A DNA stretch of 64,000 nucleotides from Candidatus Harrisonbacteria bacterium (GCA_016214655.1 JACROC010000002.1:3801-67800), one strand, 5' to 3'. Positions 2,784 to 30,907 are shown, numbered from the stretch's first letter. Notes: generated from the sequence alone by a model not told the origin. Numbers and translations: made by a program.

Positions 2784-2791
2784 ATTAACGT

Positions 2792-3137
2792 GGTAACTAA
2801 TAAGCCGGATTCTGTCTCTGACGCGAAGTCAGAACGATGACAATTTATCTTGACCTTACATTACTGCAAGATTCTTTGCGGCATTCCAAGCACATAACAA
2901 GTTATATGCTCGGCACAGCCTTGCACCCGGTAAGGATTTAGCCGTTTCATTCCCGCTTTCTTATCTCTATAGCGAGATTAAGCCAACTACGTTGAGATCG
3001 GGCTTTCCTGATCCTTTCGAATCAAGACGTTTCTGTTCGCACCTCTAGGTTGCCCATGATGGCGGTTAGCCATTACTTGTTACTAAGTGTCCGGACTTTC
3101 CTCTCCGGCTTTCGCCGAAGCTGTCATCTAAGTTACC
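2792..3137 (-). ncRNA. rnpB: RNase P RNA (bacterial type A-like, about 346 nt)
   Basis: Minus strand reads GGTAACTTAG...GAGAGGAAAGTCCGGACAC...AGACAGAATCCGGCTTATTAGTTACC. This gives both P4 strands (GGAAAGUCCGG and ACAGAAUCCGGCUUA), a P1 helix (GGUAACU/AGUUACC), P2 (GAUGACAG/UGUCAUC) and a P3 hairpin CUUCGGC-GAAA-GCCGGAG. Confidence 0.8.
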
Positions 3138-3143
3138 TATTAT

Positions 3144-7608: not shown

Positions 7609-7661
7609 ACCTATTTTTATAAAATAGGTTCTGATAAGAAAGACCCCCTTGCGGGGGTCAA
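7609..7661 (+). terminator. Two hairpins (aacctatttttataaaataggtt; gacccccttgcgggggtc) after the NDH-2 gene
   Basis: Perfect inverted repeats immediately after the stop codon. Confidence 0.5.
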
Positions 7662-7833
7662 TCAAAGATCGTTGTGTCTTTTATTAATAAGACAGAGATC
7701 TAACTGTCGGCAAAAGGATTGAAAAATTTTCCCTGCCTTCGCGAATTCCGAATCGCTCGGCTCGCTTACTCTTAATATAACAAATTGTGAAAATGGCACA
7801 AAGAGAATGGCTGTGGATAACTTGACGCTCGCC

Positions 7834-7970
7834 ATACCTATCTGCCTACCGGCACCGGCGTCGCTTCTTTCCAGCGAAGAAGCGCGCCTACGCCTCGCCA
7901 CGAAATTTTTTGCTTCGCAAAAAGCCAAGCATTTCGTGGCTCCGTAGTTGCCGCACGACAGATAGGTATG
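7834..7970. ncRNA. Copy A of a repeated, structured GC-rich element (candidate small RNA), closed by a 13-bp terminal stem gccatacctatctg/cagataggtatggc
   Basis: Core CTACCGGCACC...TTGCCGCACGA is shared with 16252-16392. The internal hairpins differ between copies by compensatory changes. Confidence 0.5.
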
Positions 7971-7989
7971 GCTCACTTATTTATAATAA

Positions 7990-8012
7990 AAAGCCCCGAG
8001 GGGGCTAAATTT
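7990..8012 (+). terminator. aagccccgagggggct hairpin followed by aaatttt
   Basis: GC stem plus T-rich tail. Confidence 0.45.
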
Positions 8013-8150
8013 TCTTGAAAGACAAATTAGCTTGTCAAACCGATTCCTTAACGCGTTAAAGCGTCGAATCAAAAATTTTTGACTTTTATAAGAAAGCCAT
8101 CTATTATTTTTCGTAGCTCTCCGAAAAAGCCGCCGTACGGAGGTCGAAAG

Positions 8151-8492
8151 ATGTGGACTATCGCTGAAACCTTAAACACGGTAAAAATTTCCGCAAAATG
8201 CGCAAGGGAGTTGTTTGAAGCCCAAGAAGATGGCGAGGAAATCTGGTACAGCCTGGAAAATGTAACCTACAAAGGAAAATTAACTTTCAATCCGGACCAT
8301 AATGAACATATGGATTTCTTGAGAAGAGATGATAAATATGTCAGCATCTTGCGAAGGCATAAAGTCAAAGGCGATATTTGCTTCGGCAGCCTGGATGGAG
8401 ACAATGCCGGAGAATTCTGGGGCTATCGCTTTGACGGCAAGGGTGGGATGAAAAGACTGACCGGCCGACTTGAATATCGGGAGAAAAAATAA
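8151..8492 (+). CDS. Hypothetical protein (ORF from 8079; likely start MWTIAETLN)
   Basis: Intact ORF, no motif recognised; forms a TAATG-overlapped pair with the next gene. Confidence 0.4.
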   Translation: MWTIAETLNTVKISAKCARELFEAQEDGEEIWYSLENVTYKGKLTFNPDHNEHMDFLRRDDKYVSILRRHKVKGDICFGSLDGDNAGEFWGYRFDGKGGMKRLTGRLEYREKK

Positions 8493-8779
8493 TGACGCTT
8501 GTAATCTACCTCCGTGATCTCACCAAAAATGAAGCAAAATTCCTGGTTGAAGTAAAAAAAGAGTCTGATGAAGAATATCTAGAAGATGAACAAATCTCTG
8601 AAATGTTTAAGGAATTCGTCACAAAATCCAAAGCTAAACTACCATTAAAATCCAAAAAGGTAGATATCTGGATTGGCATGTGGATAAATGAAAGCCAGCT
8701 CACTATAAAATTTCCGCCGGAATTCATGGCACTTGTCAGCCAAAACGGCTGGCCAGTAACTTTTGACCTGAATGATTAA
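8492..8779 (+). CDS. Hypothetical protein (95 aa)
   Basis: Stop/start overlap taATG with the upstream gene, suggesting an operon. Confidence 0.4.
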   Translation: MTLVIYLRDLTKNEAKFLVEVKKESDEEYLEDEQISEMFKEFVTKSKAKLPLKSKKVDIWIGMWINESQLTIKFPPEFMALVSQNGWPVTFDLND

Positions 8780-8807
8780 AAATCGCCTGTAAGGGCGAAT
8801 TTTTTAT

Positions 8808-9851
8808 TTATAGAAATCTTGCAGTAAAAAATAACGCTAACCCAAGCGCGGTAAAAACAGCGGAAACAATCCAAAAACGCATGGTAACTTTAGTTTCCGG
8901 CCAGCCGATAGCTTCAAAATGATGATGGATGGGGGTAGAAATAAAAACCTTTCTGCCAAGAAACTTTTTGCTGGTTAACTGAACTATGACCGAAAGAGAT
9001 TCCACAACTAAAATAATGGCGAAAAATGGCAGGAACAGCGTGGTATTGGTAAGCATGGAAATGACTCCCATGGTAATCCCCAGCGCCATAGACCCAGTGT
9101 CCCCCATAAAAAATCTCGCCGGATAAATGTTAAACCATAAAAACGCGAGCAGGGCGCCAACAGTGATTCCGCTAAAAGTTGCAAGATCATAACGATGAAG
9201 CGCAAAGGCCACTACTGTTAAGGCGCTAAAAGTAAAAAGCATAACCCCGCCCAACAGACCGTCCAAGCCATCGGTTTCATTAGCAGAAAAAGCGCTGGCA
9301 ATAATAATGAACATAAAAATTGGCACATACCATGCTCCAATCTCTATATTCCCAAAGAATGGCGCGTAAAGCACGCTCCAGTCCAGCCGATAATAAAACC
9401 AAAGCCCGCCGATGAGCGCGAGCAACGTATAGACAATCAGTTTTTGAGACATCCTCAATCCTCCGCCATTAGATCCAAGCCGAAAAACACCGAGAAGATC
9501 ATCAACGAGACCCAAAGCGGCCGCAACCAGCATGGCCGCAATCGGCAAGTAAGTTTCCGCGCGGTCGACAAAGTTCAGATAATTCCAAAAACCATCAAAC
9601 AACTTGCCCATTATTAAAAATAAAAGCGCTAAACCAAGTACAGTGGCCCAAATGACAATCCCGCCCATAGTCGGCGTATTCTCCTTGCCCTTGTGCAGTT
9701 CATAAAAAACCGGCGCCTGCTCTTTGCTCCGCAGCTGCTTATTAAAATTAAACTTATACAAAATTTTAACCACCACTGGGGTTAATGCCAGCGCAGCTAA
9801 AAATGATATTGTTGATAGCCCGAGTACACGAGCGGCTTGTAAAATTTCCAT
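8808..9851 (-). CDS. mraY: Phospho-N-acetylmuramoyl-pentapeptide transferase
   Basis: 10 TM helices, NETDGLDGL and MGDTGSMALG signature motifs. Confidence 0.85.
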   Translation of the reverse strand: MEILQAARVLGLSTISFLAALALTPVVVKILYKFNFNKQLRSKEQAPVFYELHKGKENTPTMGGIVIWATVLGLALLFLIMGKLFDGFWNYLNFVDRAETYLPIAAMLVAAALGLVDDLLGVFRLGSNGGGLRMSQKLIVYTLLALIGGLWFYYRLDWSVLYAPFFGNIEIGAWYVPIFMFIIIASAFSANETDGLDGLLGGVMLFTFSALTVVAFALHRYDLATFSGITVGALLAFLWFNIYPARFFMGDTGSMALGITMGVISMLTNTTLFLPFFAIILVVESLSVIVQLTSKKFLGRKVFISTPIHHHFEAIGWPETKVTMRFWIVSAVFTALGLALFFTARFL

Positions 9852-9852
9852 T

Positions 9853-10845
9853 CTAATTAAATTCGTATTCTTCCTTCACCCAATTATACAATATATCCGT
9901 CTGGCCGAACCGATCATCCGTCCCAAGAACGATAATCAAAATCCTGTGTCCCTGATAGTTAAAAAGCGAAATTAAATTGCCATTGGCTTCATTAGTAAAT
10001 CCGGTTTTCCCGCCGATGAAATCCGGCCGGGAAGATGCGAAACCGTTGATATTCAAAAGCTCTTTACTAATTCCTTTTGTTAATTCGCGCAAATCAACTT
10101 TTTGATTCGTGGTAATTTTAAATATTTCCGGATGATTTTTGTCTATATATTTCACCAGCTTCTCCAAATCCTCAATAGATCCTTGATTCAGATAAGAAAT
10201 TCCCGTCGGGTCTGCAAAAACAGTCTGGTCCATTCTCAACTCCACCGCTTTATCCCGCATTTTCTTTACGAAATTATCCAATCCATAAAATTCTCCGACC
10301 GCAGTAGCCGCATCATTACTGGAAACCACCAGCATCGCCTTCACTAAATCGCCCGCGCTGTATTGCTCGCCAACTTCCAAATTCCCGGAAATTCCTTCAG
10401 CCGCAATTGCCGATTCGGAAATTACAACGCGCTTTTCCAAACCAATATCTTCAGTCGCTATCACTGCGCTCATTAATTTAGTTAACGAGGCTAATGGCCA
10501 ACGGACATCAGCATTAGAACTATAAAAATCGGATCCGTAATCCAAATCTCTGACAGCAGCGGCTTTTACTTTTAATTCAGGGTCAGCTATGTTCCAATCC
10601 TTGCGATACGGAACTGTTTCTTTTATTGGTGCGTCTACTAAACTGCCGGATTGACCGATTGAACTAGGTTTGAGCAAAAAACTTTTAGTGTGAATAAATA
10701 CTGGCTGGACTTGTGCGGCAAGGCTGGTAGTTTTAATATTTTCCTGCAATGCTGTCTTTTCCAAGTCATTCCGGTCACCCCTTCCCCAAAAAGCCATGGC
10801 CACCATCAAAGCTACGAATAAAAATTTTAATTGGTCATCGTGCAT
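9853..10845 (-). CDS. Serine-type D-Ala-D-Ala carboxypeptidase (peptidase S11, PBP5-like)
   Basis: SLTK (SxxK), SSND (SxN), KTGFT (KTG) motifs; N-terminal signal/TM anchor. Confidence 0.8.
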   Translation of the reverse strand: MHDDQLKFLFVALMVAMAFWGRGDRNDLEKTALQENIKTTSLAAQVQPVFIHTKSFLLKPSSIGQSGSLVDAPIKETVPYRKDWNIADPELKVKAAAVRDLDYGSDFYSSNADVRWPLASLTKLMSAVIATEDIGLEKRVVISESAIAAEGISGNLEVGEQYSAGDLVKAMLVVSSNDAATAVGEFYGLDNFVKKMRDKAVELRMDQTVFADPTGISYLNQGSIEDLEKLVKYIDKNHPEIFKITTNQKVDLRELTKGISKELLNINGFASSRPDFIGGKTGFTNEANGNLISLFNYQGHRILIIVLGTDDRFGQTDILYNWVKEEYEFN

Positions 10846-10899
10846 AAGTGCGATACTAATATACTAATACATGCGAATGATACTAATCATGTAAATATT

Positions 10900-11541
10900 T
10901 TAACTATTAGTATTATTCGTATCATTAGTACCCATTTGTATATTTGTATCATTAATTTGCTGTTCAACCTGCTGCTTATCCTTTTGCTGAAGTTCCTGAT
11001 GCAAATTGATAACCAATTCCTTATATTTTGAATGATTTGGCAAATCTTCATTTTTGGACAAACCAAGATGCCGCAGCAATTCAAAGCTGACGCTGTATAA
11101 ATAGGCATTGGTCCGTTTAGGATCAACTCCTCTTTCTACTAAGCCGCGCATCAGCAATGCGCGCAAAGTAAAACTGGAATTAACCCCGCGGATATATTCA
11201 ATATCCGCCCTGGTAATCGGACCGGCATAAGAAATAATTGATAAAGTTTCCAGTGCCGCCGGAGTCAAAGCTTCGGTGAATTCCTGCTTGGTTATGTCTT
11301 CCAATAATTTGGAAAATTCCGGCTTAGTAACTAATTGCACCCTTCCTTTATCCTGCACCAATAACAAACCCCTTTCAGCGCGGCTCAATTCTTGTTCCAA
11401 TAATTGCAGACCCTCTTCCATCTCGGAATCTTTTAAAGCCAAAATTTTGGCTAATTTTTTAGTTTCAATCGGCTCGCCGTATATAAATAATAATGCCTCT
11501 ATTTTTGCCAACGATTTTAAGTTTTTCTCCAAGATTTCCAT
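10900..11541 (-). CDS. scpB: Segregation and condensation protein B
   Basis: IEALLFIYGEPIETKKLAKIL and tandem winged-helix pattern; sits downstream of scpA. C-terminal Asn/Thr-rich tail is encoded by ACTAATA-type repeats. Confidence 0.75.
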   Translation of the reverse strand: MEILEKNLKSLAKIEALLFIYGEPIETKKLAKILALKDSEMEEGLQLLEQELSRAERGLLLVQDKGRVQLVTKPEFSKLLEDITKQEFTEALTPAALETLSIISYAGPITRADIEYIRGVNSSFTLRALLMRGLVERGVDPKRTNAYLYSVSFELLRHLGLSKNEDLPNHSKYKELVINLHQELQQKDKQQVEQQINDTNIQMGTNDTNNTNS

Positions 11542-11585
11542 AAATCAAAGTTTATAATGTAAAGTTAAAAATGCAAAGTGGAAAA

Positions 11586-12329
11586 TTAAGGTATCTCTTG
11601 GACTGGCGGCGGCAAATTTTCTTCCTCGTGTTTCTTAATCAAAATATCAGAGAATTTTTCTTCTTGGTGGGCTTTAGCAATCCGGTCACGAATCAAATGC
11701 AAAATGGCTAAAAATAACAAAATAATTTCCAGTTTGGATTTCTCTTTAGATAAGTCCTTAAAACTGTGTTCGGTTCTTTCTTTCAGCCTCTCCAACAATT
11801 CCTTAACTTTCATTTCCACCGTCAGAATAACTTTTCTGACTGTCTGTTTTTCCGGAATCAGAGCCTTTAACTCCTGCATCAATTCCATCAACTCTGACTC
11901 CAACCGCTCAATGGTTAAATTTTCTGAAGGATAAAAGACTACCGGCAAATTCATAAACAACTCCCGGCCGTATAAAGACATTTTTTTATTCCATAAATTA
12001 TTAATTTCTAAACTGGCCTCTTCGAATTCTTTATAGATTTTAAGCCGCGCTTCCAAATCCCTGATATCAGTTTCTTCTTCCTCCGTGAGTTCCAAAGCCG
12101 GCAAAAGCGCCTTAGATTTTATCAAAAGCAACCGGGAAGCCACTACCACAAAATCCGCGAGTACACTCGGATGCCTGACTCCTTCTTCAAGATTTTTTAA
12201 ATAATCCAAAAAATCTCCGGTAACCTTAGCTAAACTGACCAAAGTGATGTCCAGCTGTTTAGCCTCAATAAGTTCCAATAGTTTTTCCAGCGGACCAGCA
12301 AACTTATCTAATTTAATTTCGTATTCCAT
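11586..12329 (-). CDS. scpA: Segregation and condensation protein A
   Basis: FAGPLEKLLELIEAKQLDITLVSLAKVT matches the ScpA N-terminal signature; length 247 aa. Confidence 0.8.
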   Translation of the reverse strand: MEYEIKLDKFAGPLEKLLELIEAKQLDITLVSLAKVTGDFLDYLKNLEEGVRHPSVLADFVVVASRLLLIKSKALLPALELTEEEETDIRDLEARLKIYKEFEEASLEINNLWNKKMSLYGRELFMNLPVVFYPSENLTIERLESELMELMQELKALIPEKQTVRKVILTVEMKVKELLERLKERTEHSFKDLSKEKSKLEIILLFLAILHLIRDRIAKAHQEEKFSDILIKKHEEENLPPPVQEIP

Positions 12330-12335
12330 AATTCA

Positions 12336-13565
12336 TTATTCTGGCAGAAGCGCGGCCTTAGTGTAATTATTTGCCGGATTCCACAACATCCAGCCAATAG
12401 GCGTACTGCTAGCCGCATCATAAGTTGCTTTAATCTGCGCGCGCACTTTTTCCGCGTCATAATTCGCCCCCAAATCAAAATCCTGCAGCCATGGACGAAG
12501 CTGCGGCTTCTTAACCAGATATTTTTCCGTGGAAGTGGAATTTTCCGCGTTAATTATATACTGCTTTAATCTCTCGCTGGCCACCAGTATAGAATTATGA
12601 ACAACCTCATATGGATGCGCCGCTGGATTCTGATAACCATCAAATCCGACATTGTAATGCGACGGGTAAACCATCGGTGCCACCGCATCAAAATAATTAT
12701 AAGCATCGTCAATATTCTGTCCTATGCCGACGTCGCCGTAATTAACCGTTACCAAACCGAATAAGTCCGCGGAAATTTTCGCCTCCGGCAAAGCTTTCCG
12801 CAAATATTTCCAAAAATCCCGGATAACGTGCCGCTTTAAAGTCACGCCATCCCAAAACGGAAACCTGGCGTCATTTAAATTGCCGTCAGACGGAAAACGG
12901 ATGTAATCAAAATTAATTTCGTCAAAACCACGCGCCAGCGCGTCTTTGGCAATTTCAATATTGTAATCCCACGCTTCTTTAGCAGCCGGATCAATCCACA
13001 TTATTCCTTTATAATCTTTCCATTGCTTGCCGGTAGAAGTACTGGTAACGGCTAAATCCGGACGATTTTTGGCCAGTATCGGGTCCTGAAAAACTGCTAA
13101 GCGGGCAATTGCATATATGCCTTCATCGTGGAGTTTTTTAATCAAAGCATTTGGACGCTGAATACGGATTTCCTCGGCGCCATATTTATTAATCAGTTCA
13201 ATATCAGTATCATAACTGACTTGGCCAGTGTAATCCTTGACATCTATTACTATCGCATTCAATTCGGTTTTTTTAAGAAGGTCCATCAAATAATTCATTT
13301 TTTTGACGCTGCCGGCAGACCAGCCAGTCGCATAAAGCGCTTTGATAACTTCCGGAGGATTTTCCAACGGCTTTTGCAGCGGCAAATCCGGATTGGCGGC
13401 AATAGCATCTTGCTTTGCCTTATTTTCTATTACCAATTTATTGGCTTCCATTTCATGAGTGACTTCGGAAATCTGCGCCAATTGGAAATCATTATGCGCC
13501 TTAAAAAATAAAAATAGGCCGCCGCCCGCCAAAAGAAAAATTAGAAATATTATGGTATTTCTCAC
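12336..13565 (-). CDS. Membrane-anchored putative glycoside-hydrolase-like protein (DUF4015/GHL-type TIM barrel)
   Basis: N-terminal TM; GFDEINFDYIRFPSDG and WIDPAAKEAWDYNIEIA resemble the DUF4015 family. Confidence 0.5.
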   Translation of the reverse strand: MRNTIIFLIFLLAGGGLFLFFKAHNDFQLAQISEVTHEMEANKLVIENKAKQDAIAANPDLPLQKPLENPPEVIKALYATGWSAGSVKKMNYLMDLLKKTELNAIVIDVKDYTGQVSYDTDIELINKYGAEEIRIQRPNALIKKLHDEGIYAIARLAVFQDPILAKNRPDLAVTSTSTGKQWKDYKGIMWIDPAAKEAWDYNIEIAKDALARGFDEINFDYIRFPSDGNLNDARFPFWDGVTLKRHVIRDFWKYLRKALPEAKISADLFGLVTVNYGDVGIGQNIDDAYNYFDAVAPMVYPSHYNVGFDGYQNPAAHPYEVVHNSILVASERLKQYIINAENSTSTEKYLVKKPQLRPWLQDFDLGANYDAEKVRAQIKATYDAASSTPIGWMLWNPANNYTKAALLPE

Positions 13566-13612
13566 CAGTTAATTTTAAGTTAAAACCCTGCTATTTTCAA
13601 TTAAATTTTGTG

Positions 13613-13648
13613 AATAGTTGACAAATTTTTATATAATCTGCTATTATA
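13613..13648 (+). promoter_or_regulatory. TTGACA-18-TATTAT promoter for the tRNA pair
   Basis: ttgaca at 13618-13623, AT-rich -10, about 40 nt before the first tRNA. Confidence 0.45.
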
Positions 13649-13686
13649 TAACCAATGTTCTTTGTTACCAAATCTGTGGTACTTGT

Positions 13687-13781
13687 GGGTCCATAGCTCA
13701 ATGGAGAGCGCTCCCTTGATACGGGAGAGGCACGGAATTGGATCCATCCGTGATATCCTGGTTCGAATCCAGGTGGACCCA
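13687..13781 (+). tRNA. tRNA-Ile(GAU)-like, 95 nt, with an atypical 29-nt variable arm forming a 6-bp hairpin
   Basis: GGGTCCA acceptor, D arm GCTC/GAGC, anticodon stem CTCCC/GGGAG with loop TTGATAC (GAT, A37), inserted CACGGA-ATTGGATCCA-TCCGTG hairpin, T arm CCTGG-TTCGAAT-CCAGG, discriminator A. No encoded CCA. Confidence 0.6.
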
Positions 13782-13810
13782 CTGGTACCATAGAAACCCG
13801 TAATGCGATT

Positions 13811-13882
13811 GGGTGTGTAACTCAGCGGCAGAGTGCCCGCCTTTTAAGCGGGAGATCATGGGTTCGATACCCACCGCACCCA
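13811..13882 (+). tRNA. tRNA-Lys(UUU)
   Basis: GGGTGTG/CGCACCC acceptor, anticodon loop CTTTTAA, T-loop TTCGATA, 72 nt. Confidence 0.85.
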
Positions 13883-13926
13883 ATGGCACTATGGATCAGT
13901 TTTGATGGGACCCAGTCCGGGTCCCG

Positions 13927-13962
13927 CCGCACCCCACATTGGAAGATGTGGGGTTTTATTTT
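13927..13962 (+). terminator. ccccacattggaagatgtgggg + TTTTATTTTTTAT
   Basis: Classic intrinsic terminator after the tRNAs. Confidence 0.6.
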
Positions 13963-14083
13963 TTATAAAAAGAATGAACGACAAAGCGCCAACGCGCCCG
14001 CCGAACGATCTCCCGCACCGCCCGGATAACAAGTTAAAATAAAATTTATGACCTCGCTTCGGGGTCTTTTTTATTCAAACAAA

Positions 14084-14108
14084 AAACCGCGCATCGCGCG
14101 GTTCTGAA
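14084..14108 (-). terminator. ccgcgcgatgcgcgg hairpin + T-run (minus strand)
   Basis: Directly 3' of the OMP gene. Confidence 0.55.
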
Positions 14109-14117
14109 AACCTAAAC

Positions 14118-14660
14118 TCAAAAATGATACTCCAGTCCCAGATTCGGCGACCAGAATCCCACCGGACCAGGACCATCCCACCTGCTCATCTCCACATTTA
14201 CATACATACTCTTAAACAAATTAAGTCCTATTCCAAAGCCCCACTTCCAGCATCCGCCAACAGTAGTGTTATCAGCATTTAAAACTGATAACCCATATCC
14301 GCCCTCAAAATAAAATCCCGGAACCAACCCGATTCGCATATTCGCAATGATATTATTCAAGGAAAAATTTACTTCAGGCGCAGTTCTGCTTCTCATTTTT
14401 CCTTTAAAATGAGTGTAATCAATACCGCTATCAAATACATTAACCAGCTTATCCTTGCGATCCTTCTCCCAATTATGAAACATAACCGATAATCCAACTC
14501 CGGAATTTGAAGAAAATGATCGTCTATCATCTGAGAAATTCGCATCGCCCTGCGCGCTCAATGACAGATAACCGAGCCTGGTGTCATCTTTCGCACTGGC
14601 ATAAATCGGCTGGGCACTCAAAACAGTCAAGGAGATCACCGCTAAAGAAATTTTTTTCAT
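14118..14660 (-). CDS. Outer-membrane-type beta-barrel protein (OmpW/OmpA-like small barrel), signal peptide; start at second Met with strong AAGGAGG
   Basis: MKKISLAVISLTVLSA...A signal; alternating hydrophobic strands; C-terminal ...GLEYHF terminal Phe typical of BAM substrates. Confidence 0.45.
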   Translation of the reverse strand: MKKISLAVISLTVLSAQPIYASAKDDTRLGYLSLSAQGDANFSDDRRSFSSNSGVGLSVMFHNWEKDRKDKLVNVFDSGIDYTHFKGKMRSRTAPEVNFSLNNIIANMRIGLVPGFYFEGGYGLSVLNADNTTVGGCWKWGFGIGLNLFKSMYVNVEMSRWDGPGPVGFWSPNLGLEYHF

Positions 14661-14802
14661 CCCCCCTCCTTTTTCGAGCAACGGTTTCTACAGCTGTGCC
14701 TGTAGTGTAAATATATTAACATATAAATTCCTCTTTGGCAAACCACTAGCCGCTAATCACTGGTCGCTGTATAATAAATCTAAATTTACTAGTCGCTAAA
14801 AT

Positions 14803-15906
14803 ATGCTTGCTATTTATCGCAAATATCGTCCGAAAACTTTTGAAGATTTACTGGGACAAGAACATATCGTGGAAATTCTCCGCAATGCCGCGCGGCAGGA
14901 TAAATTCGCCCACGCTTATCTTTTTTACGGTTCACGCGGATCCGGAAAAACCACCACCGCAAGACTGATCGCAAAATTAATAAACTGCGAAACCCGCCAG
15001 ACTGATAAAAAATTCAAAGAAACTGGGGAGCCATGCAACAAATGCCGGCCGTGCACGGAAATTGATGCCGGACACGCTTTGGATGTAATCGAAGTTGATG
15101 CGGCTTCCAACCGAGGCATTGATGAAATCCGTAATCTCCAAGAAGGCGTCCGCCTCTCACCTACTTCTTATAAAAGTAAAGTATTTATCATTGACGAAGT
15201 GCACATGCTCACCCGCGAAGCCTTTAACGCGCTTTTAAAAACTTTGGAGGAGCCGCCGGCGCATGTGATTTTCATTTTAGCCACTACCGAATACGAAAAG
15301 GTACCGGCGACAATTTCATCCCGCACCCAAAGATTCCATTTCCGGAAACTTGCGCTTAATGAAATTATTAAAAAGCTTTCCTTAATCATTAAGGCTGAAA
15401 AACTCAAAGTTGCTGATGATGCTTTAGAGCTTATAGCCGCCCTAGCCGAAGGAAGTTTACGAGATGCTGAGTCGCTGCTGGATCAGATCACCTCCCTTGA
15501 TCAGAGCGTGGAACTAAAAGATGTTGAACGAATCGCCGGAAAGATCGGCTACAAAAAAACTGCCCAACTTGCCGAATATCTACTTAAGAGCAGTCTGGAG
15601 GATTCGTTGAGCTATCTAAATGAAATTGATCAGGGCGGATATAACCTAGTCCAGCTCAACAAAGACCTCATCCATTATCTCCGCCGCGCTTTAACACTCA
15701 AGATGAGTCCGAAGATTGAAGAACTTTACCAAAAAGAACTCACTAAGGACGAGCTCGCGCATTTAAAAAATCACGCTCAACTTCTGCAAGAACAAAAACA
15801 TATTGCTTTATTGAAATCTCTGATCCGCGCTTATAGCGAAATGCGCTATTCGCCGTTTGCCATCGTACCGCTGGAAGTGGCAATTATAGAAAATCTTAAA
15901 CATTGA
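14803..15906 (+). CDS. dnaX: DNA polymerase III subunit gamma/tau (short gamma-type, 367 aa)
   Basis: GSRGSGKTTTARLIA Walker A, Zn module CNKCRPC, DAASNRGIDEIR, sensor-2 SRTQ. Confidence 0.9.
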   Translation: MLAIYRKYRPKTFEDLLGQEHIVEILRNAARQDKFAHAYLFYGSRGSGKTTTARLIAKLINCETRQTDKKFKETGEPCNKCRPCTEIDAGHALDVIEVDAASNRGIDEIRNLQEGVRLSPTSYKSKVFIIDEVHMLTREAFNALLKTLEEPPAHVIFILATTEYEKVPATISSRTQRFHFRKLALNEIIKKLSLIIKAEKLKVADDALELIAALAEGSLRDAESLLDQITSLDQSVELKDVERIAGKIGYKKTAQLAEYLLKSSLEDSLSYLNEIDQGGYNLVQLNKDLIHYLRRALTLKMSPKIEELYQKELTKDELAHLKNHAQLLQEQKHIALLKSLIRAYSEMRYSPFAIVPLEVAIIENLKH

Positions 15907-15963
15907 TTCATTGCTTTTAAAATATTATATTGCAAGCAGTACCCCAAAATAAGTATAACCACA

Positions 15964-16233
15964 GTGATACTGACCTGGATGCGAATCGCCGAGATTAACC
16001 CGAAAAAGATGGAAGCGCAAGTATTACGGCAAACGGAAATGCAGTATAACCAAGCTATTGAAGAACTACGTGCCGAAATCAAAAACGGCTACGAACCGAC
16101 ATTCTTCCAGAAAGACAGAATCAGCCTGCTAAAATACGATAAAGTAAAAAAAGACCTTTTTGCGTTTACCACTGAAGGCACTGAGGAAGAAATAAAATCG
16201 ATACAAAAAGCAATTTATCAAGCCCCAACATAA
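15964..16233 (+). CDS. Hypothetical protein (89 aa)
   Basis: ORF followed by hairpin terminator 16221-16245; not YbaB-like. Confidence 0.35.
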   Translation: MILTWMRIAEINPKKMEAQVLRQTEMQYNQAIEELRAEIKNGYEPTFFQKDRISLLKYDKVKKDLFAFTTEGTEEEIKSIQKAIYQAPT

Positions 16234-16246
16234 CGGGGCTTTTTTA
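16221..16246 (+). terminator. agcccc-aacataac-ggggct + TTTTTT
   Basis: Canonical intrinsic terminator. Confidence 0.55.
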
Positions 16247-16251
16247 TAATA

Positions 16252-16392
16252 CCCAAAACTATCTTCCTACCGGCACCAGAGTCCGCTCGCTCCAGCGACA
16301 AACGGCTCCTACGCCTCACCCCGAAAATTTTCGCTTTGCGAAAAACCAATCTTTTCGGGGTTCCGTAATTGCCGCACGAAAGATAATTTTGA
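16252..16392. ncRNA. Copy B of the repeated structured element (see 7834-7970), terminal stem caaaactatctt/aagataattttg
   Basis: Same core ends CTACCGGCACC / TTGCCGCACGA; three internal hairpins show compensatory substitutions relative to copy A. Confidence 0.5.
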
Positions 16393-16405
16393 GTATTATC
16401 GCACA

Positions 16406-17611
16406 TTACTTAGTTTCAATTTCTGTAATCTCAATCTTGATATTATTTTTCTTGAATTCCTCTAAGAGCTGGCCACGTATTTCATCGCTTAACGCTTCCG
16501 GCGGAAACACTCCGCCCTCTTTTATTTTCGGAATCGCCATGGCAAAAATCAACGCGCTTAAGCCGGCCGCATAAGAAACATAATTAGCGCCCGGATAAAC
16601 CTGGTTAATCGCCACCTGATCAGGAAATAAAATCATGGCTTTTTTAATAATTTTCTTTTTCTCACGTAAACCCTTCTCCTCAACCGCCGCCCAGAAATGG
16701 GCATTATGGAGCTGTTTGTATGCCACTAAATTTTTCAGATCCCGCAGCGCCGGCACATCCGGCCATACCTTGAGTAAAACTTCATATGGCGCAACCATCG
16801 CATCGCCGATTTTTACCTGGCGCTTTTTAAAAAGTCCCAGCTTAAAAAGCGTCCGCGCAAATTCCATTTCACTGCCGCCGGCCTTAAGATCCACATATTT
16901 TGTTTTGATATAAAGCGGCATAGTGCCGATGTCCTCCTGCGCGAGCAAATAGCACTTTTGGTTTAAAAAGGGTTCCGGAAAGTCATAAACTTCTTCCTCA
17001 GAAAAATTATTTTTAGGTAAAAATTTATCAAATTCCCAGACCAGCGGCTTATGCCAGACCTCGTCAAAAAAGATCGCCTTGGACCAGGCAGTAAACGGCA
17101 CATCCGAACTCACGTCCTCCAGCAATCTTATTTTTATATATTCAATCCTTTTTAATTGCAACGAGAGTTCTTTGGCAACCAAATTCGTCACCCCGGGAGA
17201 AGCCGAGGCATTGATCAAAGCTTTCAGATTTTTTTCCTGAAAATCTTTTTTATATTTTAATTGTTCAATCTTGCCGCCCTCCCATTCCGAAGCCAGATCC
17301 TGATAATTTACTCCGGCCTCCAGTGCAGCCTTCATCAGGCCATCATTAAATCCGGGCAAGGATGCATTGATCAATAAATCAAAGCCCCTAGCTGCGGCTA
17401 CGACCGTCGGAGAATCCTTAGCATTTAATGTCTTAAAAGTAATTTTAGGGCTGGGAATAAGAAATTTCCTGGCCTTGGCCTGATCAATATCGCCTATAAT
17501 AACCTGCTCAACTTCTGCCTTATCGGAGAGTAATTTAGCAATTATTGACCCGGCCGCCCCTGCCCCTATGATTAGAACTTTCATTACCTTAAGAATAGCC
17601 CGATGCGGCAA
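16406..17611 (-). CDS. Saccharopine dehydrogenase-family NAD(P)-binding oxidoreductase (carboxynorspermidine-dehydrogenase-like)
   Basis: VLIIGAGAAGS Rossmann N-terminus, about 400 aa two-domain architecture. Confidence 0.5.
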   Translation of the reverse strand: MPHRAILKVMKVLIIGAGAAGSIIAKLLSDKAEVEQVIIGDIDQAKARKFLIPSPKITFKTLNAKDSPTVVAAARGFDLLINASLPGFNDGLMKAALEAGVNYQDLASEWEGGKIEQLKYKKDFQEKNLKALINASASPGVTNLVAKELSLQLKRIEYIKIRLLEDVSSDVPFTAWSKAIFFDEVWHKPLVWEFDKFLPKNNFSEEEVYDFPEPFLNQKCYLLAQEDIGTMPLYIKTKYVDLKAGGSEMEFARTLFKLGLFKKRQVKIGDAMVAPYEVLLKVWPDVPALRDLKNLVAYKQLHNAHFWAAVEEKGLREKKKIIKKAMILFPDQVAINQVYPGANYVSYAAGLSALIFAMAIPKIKEGGVFPPEALSDEIRGQLLEEFKKNNIKIEITEIETK

Positions 17612-27280: not shown

Positions 27281-27907
27281 CTAAATCACCTTATTGTCCA
27301 TCAAAAAAATTCTGACTCTCTCGTAAATCTTTTGGTGCCCTTTTGTGTTAGGATGAACGCCGTCATCCAAATCCTTATTTTCCAAAATACCGAATAGATC
27401 CAGGAAAAGCACTTTTTGTTCGACGCAAACTTTTTTCATTATTTCGTTATACTTTTTGATGTTCTTATTGGTGTAATAAATATCGCGCCATGGCACGGGT
27501 TTTGTCTTTGCTTCATCGACATTTTTGAAGCCGATAAATATGATTCTATCGGTCATCTTTTTAGCCCTTCGGATAATTTCTTCAAGATTCTCCTTAAATT
27601 TATCCGGGGGAACTTGATAATTATCCTCCGTATGTTCACCGGCCGCATCATTGCCGCCGGTCTGAAAAACAAGGATATCGGCTTCCCTTATTTTGGCTTC
27701 ATTTTCAAACCGAGCAAGAATGGTCTCGGAGGTTCCGCCCGAGATGCTTAAGTTATAAAGTTCGGCGTCCTGGTCTTTCTCGGCCAAAAACAGCCAAAGA
27801 CGGTTAACCCAGCCACCCTTTTCCAAATCCCAAGCGCCCCAAGCAGTGCTGTCGCCGAAAACACAAATAGTTGCCATTAGAACTATTCTATCAAAAGAGT
27901 AGCTCAT
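27281..27907 (-). CDS. SGNH/GDSL-family hydrolase
   Basis: Block I VFGDSTAWG, block III GGNDA, block V DGVHP. Confidence 0.8.
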   Translation of the reverse strand: MSYSFDRIVLMATICVFGDSTAWGAWDLEKGGWVNRLWLFLAEKDQDAELYNLSISGGTSETILARFENEAKIREADILVFQTGGNDAAGEHTEDNYQVPPDKFKENLEEIIRRAKKMTDRIIFIGFKNVDEAKTKPVPWRDIYYTNKNIKKYNEIMKKVCVEQKVLFLDLFGILENKDLDDGVHPNTKGHQKIYERVRIFLMDNKVI

Positions 27908-27948
27908 CCCGCCACTCGCTATATTTATAAAAACAAAAAGTCCGATTA

Positions 27949-28272
27949 TTAATCGGACATGGATGGCAATACTTTCACGCCATTGACTCTTACTCCTTGA
28001 GTCGTGGAAAGCACCAGATCATCGTTATTCACTGAAAGAACCGAAGAATAGCCAATCCTGATTCCACCCCGCAGCGGTGTCCCGTCTTCAGCGATAATAC
28101 CAACCACTGAGGCGAAAGTTTCACGGGTAATATGTCTGCCATTGCTATTCACGCGAACCTTATTCCATTTGGGAGAAATAACCTTCATCGTATAAAGCGT
28201 ATTGCGAGTCTGCACTTCAACAACATCGCCGATCTTGAGATCACTTATAAGAATCCAGTCTGGCTTTTTCAT
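27949..28272 (-). CDS. Hypothetical small protein (107 aa), first unit of the cassette island
   Basis: Driven by a T1 cassette promoter. Confidence 0.45.
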   Translation of the reverse strand: MKKPDWILISDLKIGDVVEVQTRNTLYTMKVISPKWNKVRVNSNGRHITRETFASVVGIIAEDGTPLRGGIRIGYSSVLSVNNDDLVLSTTQGVRVNGVKVLPSMSD

Positions 28273-28314
28273 CTTTTATGTCTCCACTGTTTTAATTTTC
28301 AACGAACTAGAAAG

Positions 28315-28360
28315 TGACTCTATATTATTTCAAAATCTGTGTTTTGTCAAAAGAAAAAAC
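28315..28360 (-). promoter_or_regulatory. T1 cassette: TTGACA-17-TAATAT + conserved 5' UTR (AGTTCGTTGAAAAT) + GGAG
   Basis: tgtcaa 28345-28350, atatta 28322-28327 on plus strand; near-identical to five other copies. Confidence 0.6.
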
Positions 28361-28385
28361 AAGCAATGAATGCCTGTTTAATGTA

Positions 28386-28688
28386 TTATCGTAATTTTTT
28401 TCTTTCTGACTCTTCCAATTGTTTTATAATCTCTTTCGTATCTTTTGTGTACTGATTAGATTTAACTTTCTTGCCATATATTACTTCATAAACAAACCTT
28501 ATGGTTCTTTTGAAGAGTTTAGCGGATACAGCATTGGCGGAAAGCAAAGATACTGCATATTTAACTTCTTGCCTTCCTTCCCTATTTACCCCCTTTAACA
28601 CTTTCATTACGGGCAACATTTCCGGATAAACTTTTATAGTTAATCCCTTTCTTACTGAGAAAACTACTTTATTCATATTCCCCTTCAT
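28386..28688 (-). CDS. Hypothetical protein (100 aa)
   Basis: Intact ORF, basic. Confidence 0.4.
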   Translation of the reverse strand: MKGNMNKVVFSVRKGLTIKVYPEMLPVMKVLKGVNREGRQEVKYAVSLLSANAVSAKLFKRTIRFVYEVIYGKKVKSNQYTKDTKEIIKQLEESERKKLR

Positions 28689-28760
28689 CCCTTATCTGAT
28701 TATTTAAAAGCTAATATAGATATTAATTAAGATAAATTGATTAGTCAAATAAAAAACCGC

Positions 28761-29234
28761 TCAATGTAGAGCGGTGGATACAGTAATTTTTCCATATATC
28801 GGTATTCCCATATACGTTCTGAGTAAGGGTAAATCAATCCCGCGTCCTTGTACGTCTACCTCATTTCCTAACCAATTACGAATAAAATTATATTTTAATG
28901 CTATAGACTCGCCAATATGAAGTTCTGGAGATTCAGGAAGCGATACATACCATCCCCATACTAACTCTTCACCTCTATCGTATTTCGATACTTCAATATA
29001 ATAGACCTCCTTGTTCTTTGGAAACATGTCCAAATCAAAACCATATAAATCTCTATCAAGTTTCCGCGCTTTTTTTAATACACCATTCATTGTGTAGGTC
29101 TTTTTTTCGTTATACGATCCAAGAGTGTGAAAAAAGTATGATAAATCGTCAAATACGGGAGTAAAAACAGAACCCCAAAAGATGGCAAATACTAGGAGAA
29201 AAATCATCGGTGGTTCATTAACCGTTTTTTTCAT
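28761..29234 (-). CDS. Hypothetical N-terminally anchored membrane protein (157 aa)
   Basis: N-terminal TM helix; overlaps upstream gene by 17 nt. Confidence 0.4.
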   Translation of the reverse strand: MKKTVNEPPMIFLLVFAIFWGSVFTPVFDDLSYFFHTLGSYNEKKTYTMNGVLKKARKLDRDLYGFDLDMFPKNKEVYYIEVSKYDRGEELVWGWYVSLPESPELHIGESIALKYNFIRNWLGNEVDVQGRGIDLPLLRTYMGIPIYGKITVSTALH

Positions 29235-29592
29235 TGTTGGCTCCTACGACTTCAAGCATTGCCCTACACGTCTTACACTGCTCCACATGGAGCATTCGGA
29301 TATCGGAAAGATTCGGCCACTGCTTGAGTTCTTTAAGAGTAAGGCAATCTTTGATAAAAGCCAGCTCCAATGCCTTGTCTTCTAATTTCCCCTTAAATTC
29401 TTCGGTCGTCATTCCGATTCCCATAGCGACTCTTTTCAAGGCAGCCTCGAACTCATCTTCTTGATTACCGGTCTTTTTTGAACCAAGATCAAAATAGTTG
29501 ATGATGTCTCTCCTTATGGTTGGCGAAGCTAACATCAAAAATAACACAATGCCTACGAGTGTCAGACTAACGATAATCAGATAATTTTCCAT
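29218..29592 (-). CDS. Hypothetical membrane protein (124 aa)
   Basis: N-terminal TM; T1 cassette promoter. Confidence 0.4.
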   Translation of the reverse strand: MENYLIIVSLTLVGIVLFLMLASPTIRRDIINYFDLGSKKTGNQEDEFEAALKRVAMGIGMTTEEFKGKLEDKALELAFIKDCLTLKELKQWPNLSDIRMLHVEQCKTCRAMLEVVGANNEKNG

Positions 29593-29635
29593 CTTTCCTC
29601 CTATCTTCAGTTTTAAACGAACTGGGTATTGATGA

Positions 29636-29670
29636 ATATATTACTTCAAAATCTATGTTTTGTCAACAAC
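29636..29670 (-). promoter_or_regulatory. T1 cassette promoter + UTR CAGTTCGTTTAAAACTGAAG + GGAGG
   Basis: tgtcaa 29661-29666, atatta 29638-29643, exact 17-bp spacer. Confidence 0.6.
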
Positions 29671-29705
29671 CCGTAATGGTTCAATAGCTTGGAATACCCC
29701 AAACT

Positions 29706-30593
29706 ATGTATATGACATATTCAAATGACCCCCACTTGCCTCGGGTTAGAATGGAGGCAGTTCGTTTAGTTCGCTCCGGTTTGAGCACGGTAAAGGTCGC
29801 AAGGCATATGGGATATTCTCAAAGCGCTATTGTGAAATGGGTAGCCAAAGCTCCTACTGATGGTCGAATGATCATTCCTACTCAGTCATCTCGTTTCTGG
29901 ACACATCCGCATTCTTTGTCTGCTGAATTAGTGGAAACTATTTTGTCTTATCGACGAGAAAGAAATCAATGCGCGGAGATTCTGCATTATCGTTTGGCTA
30001 CAGATGGTTACCGAGTCAGCCTCTCCTCAGTAAAAAGAACTTTGCAAAGAAATCAGATGACTCGTTTCTCTAAATGAAAAAAGTGGCATCAATATCCGCC
30101 TCGTCCTCTGGCAGAAAAACCAGGGATTCTGGTTCAAATTGACACGATTCACGACGGCCAGGTTGGGGAGCAGCTATACATCTATACTCTGCTGGATGTC
30201 TGCTCCCGTTGGGCCTATGCCCTGCCTTCTTTGTGGATCAATACTCATCGCAGTTTGCAATTTGTGGAAAGGGCGAAGGAATTAGCTCCTTTTCCTTTCC
30301 AAACTTTCCAATCAGATCATGGCAGTGAATTTTCCAAATGGTTTACCAAAAGAATCGGGGAACGAAACATGGCCCATCGCCATTCCCGAGTCCGGCAGCC
30401 GAATGACAATGCTCACTTGGAAAGATTCAATCGGATCATTCAGGAGGAATGCATTTCCCGGATTCCCGGGTCATTATCTGTCTGGAAAAAAGAAATACTG
30501 GAATATCTCCGGTATTACAATGAGGAAAGGCCGCATATGGGGTTGGCTATGAAAACCCCGATCGATATTATTAAAACTATTCCAAGCTATTGA
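29706..30593 (+). mobile_element. IS481-family (rve/DDE) transposase interrupted by a single in-frame TGA at 30075-30077, likely a pseudogene
   Basis: N-terminal HTH; the same frame continues after TGA through ILVQIDTIHDG...SDHGSEF...NAHLERFN (DDE) to ...ERPHMGLAMKTP. No other frame change. Confidence 0.6.
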
Positions 30594-30737
30594 TTAGAAA
30601 ACGCAACCCCGGACTAAAGCCCGGGGCTTGTGGCTACGAGATGTCAAAATAAAAACCGCAAAGATTATCTACGACCCCACCGAACATTGTTAAAAGTAAA
30701 GTTATAAAAATATAAACGTCAAATTTGGTTCAAAAAA

Positions 30738-30765
30738 AGACGGCGGTGAAGCCGTCGAAATTGTG
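30738..30765 (-). terminator. gacggcttcaccgccgtc + T7 (minus strand)
   Basis: Ends a GC-rich roughly 125-nt minus-strand segment that has no ORF. Confidence 0.45.
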
Positions 30766-30858
30766 CCAATGGGTACTTTGCGATCCGCTGCGTTGAGGAT
30801 TTAGCTTCCACGCTAGGTTTGGCATCCCCCGAGCCAACTACCCTACGCCGTAATCCCC

Positions 30859-30893: not shown

Positions 30894-30907
30894 TATCAAG
30901 TAAATCT

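Follow-up and report, generated by a model that had tools for sequence, protein, structure and literature searches.

Two copies of a structured repeat in a Candidatus Harrisonbacteria genome and the family of interspersed non-coding elements to which they belong

The locus and its two copies

The stretch of DNA analyzed here (the window, 64,000 nucleotides) carries two copies, A and B, of one G+C-rich element (Table 1). Both had been placed at 7834-7970 and 16252-16392 by the original prediction; they are indeed present, with true borders that lie a little wider. A repeat search pairs 7832-7964 with 16253-16385 at 79% identity without gaps, and a MAFFT alignment of the copies shows 84-87% column identity and zero indels. 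When up to three mismatches are allowed, the 17-mer CCGTARTTGCCGCACGA matches copies A and B only (expected number 0.22), and a search of the 64 kb window with the family model described below, filters off, found no third copy.

Copy B lies 6 nt from the stop codon (16406-16408) of a saccharopine-dehydrogenase-like gene and is bordered on its other side by the terminator of a convergent gene. Copy A is preceded by a terminator-like hairpin and a promoter-like site, the -35 part of which is kept in the close relative L079. No DnaA-box cluster was found in the window, and two of its proteins have no exact match in the assembly index. IS481/IS3-like fragments at 29706-30593 have no relation to the copies in sequence or position.

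Two kinds of known element were tried and rejected for this pair. A TnpB/IscB guide RNA does not apply, as the neighboring 401-aa gene encodes a saccharopine dehydrogenase homologue and the element is paired at both ends; a DGR template/variable repeat pair was dismissed because the differences between A and B are not adenine-specific.

Table 1. Coordinates of the two copies, their structural parts and adjacent signals in the window
Feature	Position	Strand	Description
Copy A, complete element	7827..7976	-	Outer 2 bp and tandem G.A pairs, P1 and onward to the matching 3' end; covariance model 173 and 158 bits; fold -85.3 kcal/mol, z = -8.9; borders from outward pairing and direct reading
Copy A, P1 5' arm	7957..7972	-	GCCAUACCUAUCUGUC; pairs with 7831-7846
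Copy A, internal loop, P2 5' strand and junction	7947..7956	-	GUG, CGGCA and AC; within the invariant block GUGCGGCAACUACGGA
Copy A, arm P3	7889..7946	-	P3a UACG/CGUA, loop GA/GAGG, P3b, conserved 5' bulge GCUUGG, P3c hairpin tipped C(GAA)G
Copy A, arm P4	7857..7888	-	Stem, bulged A, C(GCUG)G tip, then bulged A
Copy A, junction, P2 3' strand and internal loop	7847..7856	-	GG, UGCCG and GUA
Copy A, P1 3' arm	7831..7846	-	GGCAGAUAGGUAUGGC
Copy A context, hairpin	7992..8006	.	G+C-rich, terminator-like on both strands, 16 nt upstream of copy A (minus strand)
Copy A context, promoter-like site	8009..8038	-	TTGACA-18-GAAAAT aimed at copy A; consensus match only
Copy B, complete element	16246..16399	-	P1 of 22 bp; covariance model 164 and 143 bits; fold -69.6 kcal/mol; borders from sequence reading and outward pairing
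Copy B, P1 5' arm	16378..16399	-	Pairs with 16246-16267; three G-U pairs are A-C on the plus strand
Copy B, arm P3	16310..16367	-	
Copy B, arm P4	16278..16309	-	
Copy B, P1 3' arm	16246..16267	-	
Copy B context, intrinsic terminator	16220..16241	+	Terminator of the 89-aa gene, T-run touching the element

The fold and the strand that folds

From the outside inward, the fold begins with P1, the long stem that closes it, and continues through a 3x3 internal loop and the stem P2 to a three-way junction with the arms P3 and P4. All stems that the original prediction had quoted as covarying are found in the RNAalifold consensus fold of copies A and B, in which 11 of the 55 pairs are changed on both sides and none is broken; P4 is a fourth covarying stem that had escaped the prediction.

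The folded strand is the minus strand of the window. It folds more stably than the plus strand in both copies (-85.3 versus -73.8 kcal/mol for copy A and -69.6 versus -48.0 kcal/mol for copy B), with z-scores of -8.9 and -8.6, respectively, and mismatches on the plus strand correspond to G-U pairs on the minus strand. Throughout the family, G-U outnumbers A-C by 91:10 in the P1 stems, and this excess is kept in every gene context (33:4 where the element is antisense to both neighbors, 25:1 where it is sense).

A family of structured repeats in Patescibacteria

The original prediction had proposed a covariance-model search across related genomes and a covariation analysis on a larger alignment; work along these lines bears out a structured family with compensatory changes. 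By pattern scans combined with a covariance model, 93 further copies were collected beyond the window, all of them in Patescibacteria MAGs or groundwater contigs. The family thus comprises 95 model-confirmed copies including A and B (86 distinct sequences, 139-166 nt). Its distribution is sparse: of 185,579 species representatives, just 4 MAGs have matches. Of 50 pattern matches in genome contigs, the 38 that fall in high-G+C genomes arose by chance and failed confirmation by the model. Two-pattern scans of viral contigs gave no match.

Among the 86 distinct copies, compensatory double changes occur in 45 of the 55 pairs and 94.4% of cells are paired, while shuffled and slid control alignments come nowhere near these values. 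All 16 pairs of P1 vary, with compensatory changes, and P2 covaries between subtypes. No tertiary covariation was detected beyond register corrections inside P3c and P4. The closing stem is 16-25 bp long, free in sequence, and different at its ends among subfamilies, one of which has tandem G.A pairs at the base. In contrast to the stems, the approximately 45 unpaired or junction bases of the core are nearly invariant. Further details of the fold are the internal loop GUR/NNA, a P2 of 5 bp, the P3 bulge GCUYGG, the P4 tip C(GCWG)G with its bulged A, and an invariant G that follows the 5' arm of P1. GUAG stands directly 5' of P4 in all copies and usually also 5' of the P1 3' arm. Hairpin tips are mostly GNA triloops, for example, C(GAA)G.

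The only matches to Rfam 15 that the window gives at gathering thresholds are RNase P and tRNAs, and scans of both copies, other subtypes, and the outer module at permissive E-values returned chance-level matches only. The element was not found described in the literature on CPR structured RNAs and repeats. We regard the family as a probably uncatalogued structured non-coding interspersed repeat of CPR (Patescibacteria) genomes.

The overlapping reading frames

Two minus-strand ORFs, 7662-7976 and 16218-16406, overlap the copies, and the peptides they encode share 55% identity across 51 residues, which could point to a small protein gene. The original prediction had already dismissed these ORFs as artefacts of nucleotide conservation, with changes that preserve structure and are not synonymous, and the family agrees with it on both counts. 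Element lengths are spread evenly modulo 3 (25/27/30), and invariant blocks follow each other in a phase that is equally random relative to codons (14/14/18); stops are frequent, and the frame is open in just 12 of 49 copies. The substitutions between A and B keep the pairs, the homologues covary without any coding pattern, and no such peptide occurs among 5.8 billion predicted proteins. At the family level the small-protein reading is refuted, and for the two ORFs themselves its probability is next to nil.

Insertion behavior

Nested copies occur in L097, L075, L100, and L092, and head-to-head pairs are separated by 12-22 nt; Pfam gave no match for the ORF of 100 aa that lies between the inverted pair in L024. 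Truncated copies are 5' fragments of the folded strand only, all broken near AACUACG. In L054, a close relative (BipA 98% identical), the flanks are colinear, but the element is inverted and has an extra outer module. An element follows dnaX in L051 and is absent from that site in the window and in L107.

Only 2 of the 86 copies lie inside genes, one on each strand, with both host genes confirmed by Pfam. Compared with its L091 orthologue, a class-V aminotransferase/cysteine desulfurase gene is longer by exactly 42 codons through the copy at L116:2191-2334, and the copy at L098:1641-1786 is in frame within an alanyl-tRNA synthetase gene.

No direct repeat that would indicate a target-site duplication was found in the flanks of 87 copies or on comparing the filled site of L116 with the empty one of L091, and conserved terminal repeats were likewise not seen. 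A search for an autonomous parent, with element halves up to 6 kb apart, found only nested copies. Copies within the same genome are old (79% identity, saturated stems), with no recent burst seen. The same intergenic sites are occupied in genomes with only 60-75% protein identity, for example, between mraY and NADH dehydrogenase and upstream of hrcA.

Gene context and possible host roles

Clustering of 308 neighboring proteins yielded only syntenic housekeeping genes; there is no recurrent partner, nor a recurrent transposase, reverse transcriptase, or HUH gene among them. Orientation relative to the neighboring genes is arbitrary. Nevertheless, the placement has a polarity: in 49 of 75 cases the 3' end adjoins a stop codon that belongs to a convergent gene (median distance 9 nt), while an A+T-rich spacer of about 70 nt is retained on the 5' side. 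A riboswitch or 5' leader does not fit these surroundings, as the downstream neighbor is on the opposite strand in those 49 of 75 cases and the neighbors are diverse.

The original prediction had read the element as a structured sRNA family. The structure and its compensatory changes proved genuine, whereas an sRNA gene is not supported, given the lack of a consistent promoter or terminator, the arbitrary orientation, and the nested, truncated, inverted, and in-gene copies. A broader version of this idea is that the copies are genes for a stable trans-acting structured RNA, for example, the RNA part of a protein-binding or catalytic RNP, which would be expressed from weak or unrecognized promoters or processed from neighboring transcripts like tRNA genes, with nested and truncated copies as pseudogenes. 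Functional RNAs typically combine a near-invariant core with stems that covary freely. This pattern, the strand-specific G-U excess, the tandem G.A pairs of one subfamily, the retention of sites in divergent genomes, and the constant 5' position of the A+T-rich spacer, with TATAA enriched 3-13 nt upstream of P1, all agree with the idea, as does a plausible promoter that precedes both copy A and the orthologous copy in L079. However, stringent and relaxed promoter searches and positional -10 histograms on both strands revealed no oriented signal: -10-like hexamers are equally frequent on the opposite strand, and the stringent matches number only 14, without a preferred distance. In 11 copies no more than 25 nt separate the 5' end from the start of a divergent gene. 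A terminator was found 12-35 nt upstream in 17 of 84 copies and downstream of the element in none of 82. The in-frame copies in two essential genes, one per strand, speak against it as well, and the presence of the element in a mere four or so of the species representatives searched would be odd for a core RNA. We consider such RNA genes unlikely.

Another host role would be that of a cis-acting element, either a 3'-end or intercistronic structure that stabilizes or processes mRNA or an insulator or terminator between convergent or tandem units, recognized by a conserved RNA-binding protein or RNase. The placement at gene borders and close to convergent stop codons suits this role, and the length of the closing stem would suffice for RNase III. 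Moreover, 15 of 81 copies have a same-strand TTGACA -35 box 4-25 nt downstream, which in three genomes is that of the CIRCE/hrcA promoter, and in three genomes the element occupies the space from hrcA to grpE. Against this stands that the transcribed strand is mostly the complement of the G-U-bearing strand, that the strand of the element itself has no U-tract after it and the opposite strand just a weak one, that orientation flips between close relatives with unchanged flanks, and that in-gene copies cannot fill such a role. A host cis-acting element is thus quite improbable in our judgment.

Comparison with known systems

The closest analogue is the Rickettsia palindromic element (RPE), to which the family is likened by its behavior and not by membership, since the phylum is different. 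RPEs are repeats of about 100-150 bp with a long hairpin-like fold and many dispersed copies in a small genome; they lie between genes and also in frame in unrelated housekeeping genes, where they are translated, and they lack their own transposase, so that how they are mobilized is a matter of debate for them as well (PMC10969869). The family shares the repeat size, the fold, the dispersal, the apparent lack of a transposase of its own, and in-frame, translated insertions in housekeeping genes that keep the ORF open. It differs in its free closing stem, its nearly invariant three-way-junction core of about 45 bases, the strand specificity of its fold (G-U 91:10), the rarity of copies in genes, and the lack of a family-wide reading frame.

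Classical MITEs (Correia/NEMIS, ERIC, RUP, BOX, QMITE) are likewise short, non-coding, multi-copy, and intergenic, occur in either orientation, and have nested and partial copies. They may be co-transcribed, and as RNA they can fold. Their defining traits are target-site duplications and terminal inverted repeats that are conserved and common to a parent IS. Neither was seen in the family, the conservation of which is internal instead of terminal. The alternative named in the original prediction, that the element is the terminal inverted repeat of a known MITE, does not hold literally, yet the behavior of the family is MITE/RPE-like.

REPs are single hairpins of 20-40 nt that occur in hundreds of near-identical copies in genomes with a RAYT gene. 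Like REPs and REPINs, the family has G+C-rich hairpins preceded by GTAG (GUAG 5' of P4), appears suited to recognition as a folded single strand, and persists for long at fixed sites; its copies, however, are highly diverged, larger, and of another architecture, without a Y1 transposase nearby. No rule relates the element to the replication strand: among loci with significant skew, the folded strand is G-rich in 29 and C-rich in 25, so the lagging-strand orientation bias of IS200/IS605-derived elements (PATEs) is not seen either. Integron attC sites resemble the family in that sequence is variable and structure conserved, with the folded strand antisense to the preceding ORF and located right after its stop codon. 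The family, in contrast, lacks R'/R'' core sites (GTTRRRY), arrays, and an integrase, is solitary among housekeeping genes, and is built around a complex three-way junction whose core is invariant.

Retron msr-msd RNAs are of similar size, and in them, too, a variable inverted repeat pairs the ends and the 5' junction has a conserved G. It can therefore be asked whether the family is a retron-like ncRNA, with its ends as a1/a2 repeats, the invariant G as priming site, and a part copied into single-stranded DNA. GNA triloops such as C(GAA)G, which prevail at the hairpin tips, are especially stable in DNA, and the truncated copies are 5' fragments of the folded strand only. But no reverse transcriptase gene accompanies any of about 90 copies, effector genes are absent as well, P2 encloses both arms unlike in msr/msd, and the copies are dispersed instead of single per system, which makes a retron-like ncRNA very improbable.

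A probable mobile insertion

Genome comparisons suggest that the family is probably a mobile or selfish non-coding insertion of the RPE/MITE kind. Copies would settle in short intergenic spaces in either orientation, in other copies, and occasionally in frame in genes, where they would then be translated. Presumably only copies whose folded single strand, be it a transcript or single-stranded DNA, is recognized by a conserved trans-acting factor would be copied. Selection would then act on lineages of the element, which would yield an invariant core, compensatory changes, and a G-U excess that is alike in any gene context. Copies A and B are accordingly best seen as probable passengers in the window: copy B would lie past the coding sequence of the saccharopine-dehydrogenase-like gene, in its 3' untranslated region, and copy A would have a hairpin terminator on one side and a small transcription unit, separate from it, on the other. 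Several observations speak against a mobile insertion. Target-site duplications and conserved terminal repeats were not seen, no transposase, reverse transcriptase, or HUH gene recurs near the copies, and copies within the same genome are old, with no recent burst. Site retention across divergent genomes could mean that a host function is kept in place, and the polarity between the stop codon at the 3' end and the spacer at the 5' end is not explained by simple random insertion.

A bolder version, which we consider a long shot, is that of a new autonomous nucleic-acid mobile element without a protein, whose invariant junction core is either catalytic (self-cleaving/ligating, or similar to reverse splicing) or the feature by which a reverse transcriptase or a single-strand DNA enzyme of the host specifically recognizes it. 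If this were true, a folded RNA or single-stranded DNA of about 145 nt would copy itself around CPR genomes and into genes, and the recurrent break at AACUACG, found in truncated and nested copies alike, would be its reaction or template-switch site.

Significance

The family adds a large and well-supported structured element (86 distinct sequences, 45 covarying pairs), missing from Rfam, from a poorly explored branch of bacteria. For annotation, it accounts for spurious ORF calls and for inserts of 40-50 residues in essential CPR enzymes. Should the mobile interpretation be correct, RPE-like selfish DNA in protein-coding genes would not be confined to Rickettsia and would occur also in ultra-small bacteria that are free-living or episymbiotic. 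The family departs from RPEs and MITEs in having an invariant, strand-specific core, which may thus offer a tangible starting point, namely, a site for binding or catalysis, for learning how repeats without a protein get copied. The copying of palindromic repeats is a long-standing puzzle that this core could help to solve.

The two copies and their surroundings

The window carries two copies, A and B, of one folded G+C-rich segment, as the original prediction had claimed: an ungapped repeat pair of about 140 nt (7832-7964 versus 16253-16385) shares 79% identity, and the 17-mer CCGTARTTGCCGCACGA matches only these two copies in the window when up to three mismatches are allowed (0.22 matches expected). 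When the family covariance model was run unfiltered over the 64 kb, A and B were likewise the only element matches, the remaining ones being short terminator-like palindromes. Every stem quoted in that prediction was recovered. For A and B jointly, RNAalifold predicts 55 pairs, 11 of them changed on both sides and none broken. The borders in the table follow from outward pairing.

The far end of copy B abuts the T-run of the terminator of a convergent 89-aa gene. Because this copy directly follows a same-strand saccharopine-dehydrogenase-like gene, it would be transcribed in the folded sense, as the 3' untranslated region of that gene. A promoter-like TTGACA-18-GAAAAT is directed toward copy A, whose syntenic counterparts in loci L001 and L083 lie immediately after mraY on the same strand. 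The ORF 7662-7976 is a composite that spans copy A and a separate conserved non-coding unit directly downstream of it.

This second unit is common to the window, L079, L001, and L083. Its upstream signals extend to 7820 and include a perfect DnaA-box-like TTATCCACA; the unit has a promoter-like TTGYGY-16-TGtTATATT, a region of about 130 nt with three or four hairpins, and a terminator. The four sequences show five compensatory pairs, no Rfam match was obtained, and the unit is a candidate independent sRNA.

Elsewhere in the window, some 25 small hypothetical genes form an island in which each gene has a near-identical promoter (TTGACA-17-TAATAT) before it and recurring terminator or 3' modules (repeat families D1-D11) after it; the island also contains a split IS481/IS3-like transposase. 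The tRNA-Arg(ACG) appears to carry a long extra arm or else an insertion. As the plus-strand GC skew is negative in every 4-kb bin, the window lies within one replichore; it contains no DnaA-box cluster.

Coordinates of the element copies and other features, numbered within the window or the named locus (L-numbers denote other genome loci or groundwater contigs carrying the element or compared for it)
Feature	Sequence	Positions	Strand	Remark
Copy A	window	7827-7976	minus	16 nt after a hairpin reading as terminator on both strands
Copy B	window	16246-16399	minus	6 nt past the stop codon of the saccharopine-dehydrogenase-like gene
Second non-coding unit	window	7635-7768	minus	downstream of copy A
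Terminator of second unit	window	7642-7659		
DnaA-box-like sequence	window	7812-7820		
RNase P RNA	window	2786-3139	minus	
tRNA-Arg(ACG)	window	13687-13782	plus	96 nt, about 20 nt above usual length
Island of small genes	window	about 27900-44250	mostly minus	
Transposase, HTH part	window	29706-30077		
Transposase, rve_3 part	window	30231-30593		
In-gene element, cysteine desulfurase	L116	2191-2334		coding strand opposite to fold
In-gene element, alanyl-tRNA synthetase	L098	1641-1786		same strand as fold
ORF between divergent elements	L024	6277-6579		100 aa
CIRCE-like repeat at hrcA promoter	L021	5391-5450		
CIRCE-like repeat at hrcA promoter	L091	6088-6140		
CIRCE-like repeat at hrcA promoter	L063	1867-1930		
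23S rRNA intervening-sequence protein gene	L008	2068-2439		about 1 kb from an element copy
Outer module	L054	8905-9195		encloses element
Outer module	L062	8490-8760		encloses element
Outer module	L107	4185-4500		encloses element
Outer module	L095	170-480		encloses element
Outer module	L058, L081, L050			encloses element

Fold and strand

Both copies have folding z-scores near -9 and fold clearly better on the minus strand (-85.3 versus -73.8 kcal/mol for copy A, -69.6 versus -48.0 kcal/mol for copy B) because several A-C mismatches of the plus strand correspond to G-U pairs there. In the minus-strand reading, a closing stem P1 of 16-25 bp of free sequence is followed by a 3x3 internal loop (5' GUR versus NNA 3'), by P2 (usually CGGCA/UGCCG), and by a three-way junction. 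Arm P3 consists of P3a (UACG/CGUA), an internal loop GA/GAGG, P3b, a conserved 5' bulge GCUYGG, and the P3c hairpin, and arm P4 is a stem with a bulged A, a C(GCWG)G tip, and then another bulged A. In one large subfamily, to which copy A belongs, the distal end of P1 carries tandem G.A pairs plus two or three extra pairs.

Which strand folds is set by the element itself, independent of its context. Across copies, G-U outnumbers A-C in P1 by 91:10, an excess equally present with both neighbours on the opposite strand (33:4) and with both on the same one (25:1). Orientation is unrelated to local GC skew (29 versus 25).

Distribution and covariation

No Rfam 15 model matches the two copies, the other subtypes, or the outer module found around some of them. 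An anchored pattern applied to one genome per species (185,579 species representatives) returned 50 stretches. The model built from the two copies (R1), whose search across related genomes had been proposed as a check, confirmed 12 copies among these stretches, all from four Patescibacteria-type MAGs labeled Harrisonbacteria, Paceibacter, 'Patescibacteria group', and Saccharibacteria; by pattern and R1 together, the element is thus rare (4 of 185,579). The remaining pattern matches, unconfirmed by R1, were chance matches in high-G+C genomes. No viral contig matched. A second pattern on different anchors was run on groundwater metagenome contigs and gave 73 contigs, all with model-confirmed copies and several with additional copies that the pattern had missed, bringing the total to 95 copies (86 distinct).

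In the resulting alignment, standard pairs occupy 94.4% of cells, compared with 68% in shuffled and 36-44% in slid-partner controls. Two-sided changes occur in 45 of the 55 pairs and in 1155 cells (about 309 expected), and P2 covaries between subtypes (e.g., CGGCA/UGCCG versus GAGAA/UUCUC). About 45 unpaired or junction positions are conserved at 90% or more, a figure that is partly ascertained since some conserved blocks served as search anchors; the anchor blocks of either scan could nevertheless vary freely in the other.

Coding capacity, transcription signals, and gene context

The family is non-coding. Element lengths are evenly distributed over the three residues modulo 3, the phase between invariant blocks is 14/14/18, and the reading frame proposed from the window is open in only 12 of 49 copies, which agrees with the original prediction that the ORF calls are artefacts. 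The two window peptides resemble each other solely because the underlying DNA is alike, and no such peptide was present among the predicted proteins searched.

The same prediction's reading as an sRNA gene was not supported. Stringent and relaxed searches upstream of the copies revealed no preferred promoter position or strand, TATAA and its complement are both enriched just outside P1, and an intrinsic terminator follows the element in 0 of 82 copies but lies 12-35 nt upstream in 17 of 84. This lack of transcription signals speaks against a dispersed gene family for a trans-acting structured RNA, which we regard as unlikely, and also against a host cis-element at gene borders, which we regard as quite unlikely. 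These two, the main alternatives, draw support from the retention of copies at the same intergenic sites (mraY/NADH dehydrogenase, upstream of hrcA, and hrcA-grpE) in genomes with only 60-75% protein identity, and from the unexplained 5'/3' polarity of the element's context.

That context is polar, yet not gene-oriented. In 49 of 75 cases, the neighbour that follows the element lies on the opposite strand, its stop codon being a median of 9 nt from the 3' end of the element; the other three kinds of neighbour lie about 70 nt away. Fifteen of 81 copies are followed within 25 nt by a same-strand TTGACA box, which in three genomes belongs to the CIRCE/hrcA promoter. The adjoining proteins are ordinary housekeeping proteins with no recurrent partner.

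In these three genomes, a CIRCE-like inverted repeat (TTRGCACTC-N9-GAGTGMTAA) overlaps the hrcA promoter that directly follows an element copy, and a second copy sits between hrcA and grpE. In another locus, an element copy lies near the gene of a 23S rRNA intervening-sequence protein (Avd-like four-helix bundle), probably by coincidence.

Insertion-like behaviour

Copies inside genes and orientation flips further argue against both the RNA-gene and the cis-element alternatives. In L116, the element lies within a class-V aminotransferase (cysteine desulfurase) gene, where 147 nt replace 21 nt of the L091 orthologue, exactly 42 extra codons, and the protein is conserved on both sides of the insert. 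A second copy is in frame within an alanyl-tRNA synthetase gene. The chance of two open, in-frame cases is about 2% by our own rough estimate, and the inserts are therefore most simply read as translated rather than removed. In L054, whose source is closely related to the window organism (98% identity in BipA, 91% in saccharopine dehydrogenase), the sequences on either side of copy B are colinear with those in the window, yet the element lies in the opposite orientation and is wrapped in an extra module of about 100 nt. An element directly follows dnaX in L051, and none is there in the window or L107.

Copies also interrupt each other: in L097, L075, L106, L072, and L100, a type-2 copy has a complete type-1 copy in place of its P3-P4 part, the converse is seen in L092, and the outer stems remain paired. 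Solitary 5' fragments (L063/L102/L116, L075/L120, and L100) are all broken within or just after AACUACG, and head-to-head pairs occur 12-22 nt apart. Between one divergent pair lies an ORF encoding a cysteine/histidine-containing protein without a Pfam match; L085 and L112, two related contigs, have the same pair separated by just 12-18 nt.

The outer stem of the outer module spans 20-30 bp and varies in sequence. The module has CGCCUCCAYYUAUAA on the 5' side and UUAAGACCUGAAUGAUCCCACCGCCAGCCCGA on the 3' side, and its CGCCUC complements GAGGCG, an invariant sequence in the inner element.

Nature of the element

The combination of an invariant core, pair-preserving stem changes, and a context-blind G-U bias leads us to consider it rather probable that the element is a mobile or selfish interspersed repeat whose propagation needs a folded single strand recognized by a conserved factor. 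We infer mobility itself, and likewise the nature of the folded species and of the recognizing factor. GNA triloops are specially stable in DNA, and the variable P3c tip is mostly such a triloop, e.g., C(GAA)G, not GNRA or UNCG; together with the lack of promoters, these triloops hint at DNA, while the G-U pair frequency and the tandem G.A motif hint at RNA, neither set being decisive.

Classical MITEs have conserved terminal repeats and target duplications, whereas neither was seen for the element, and it does not show the features expected of IS200/IS605 derivatives, retrons, attC sites, riboswitches, and sRNA genes. From REP/RAYT elements it differs in size, architecture, and copy similarity, and no Y1 transposase gene was seen near its copies. 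In the way it behaves, it comes closest to the Rickettsia palindromic elements, for which in-frame insertion into housekeeping genes is likewise described (PMC10969869). We therefore file the element with the small interspersed repeats, among which its invariant, strand-specific three-way-junction core sets it apart. As a mobile or selfish repeat, it would be subject to selection acting on element lineages, and resident copies would keep the signature until they decay, which may account for the 5' fragments.
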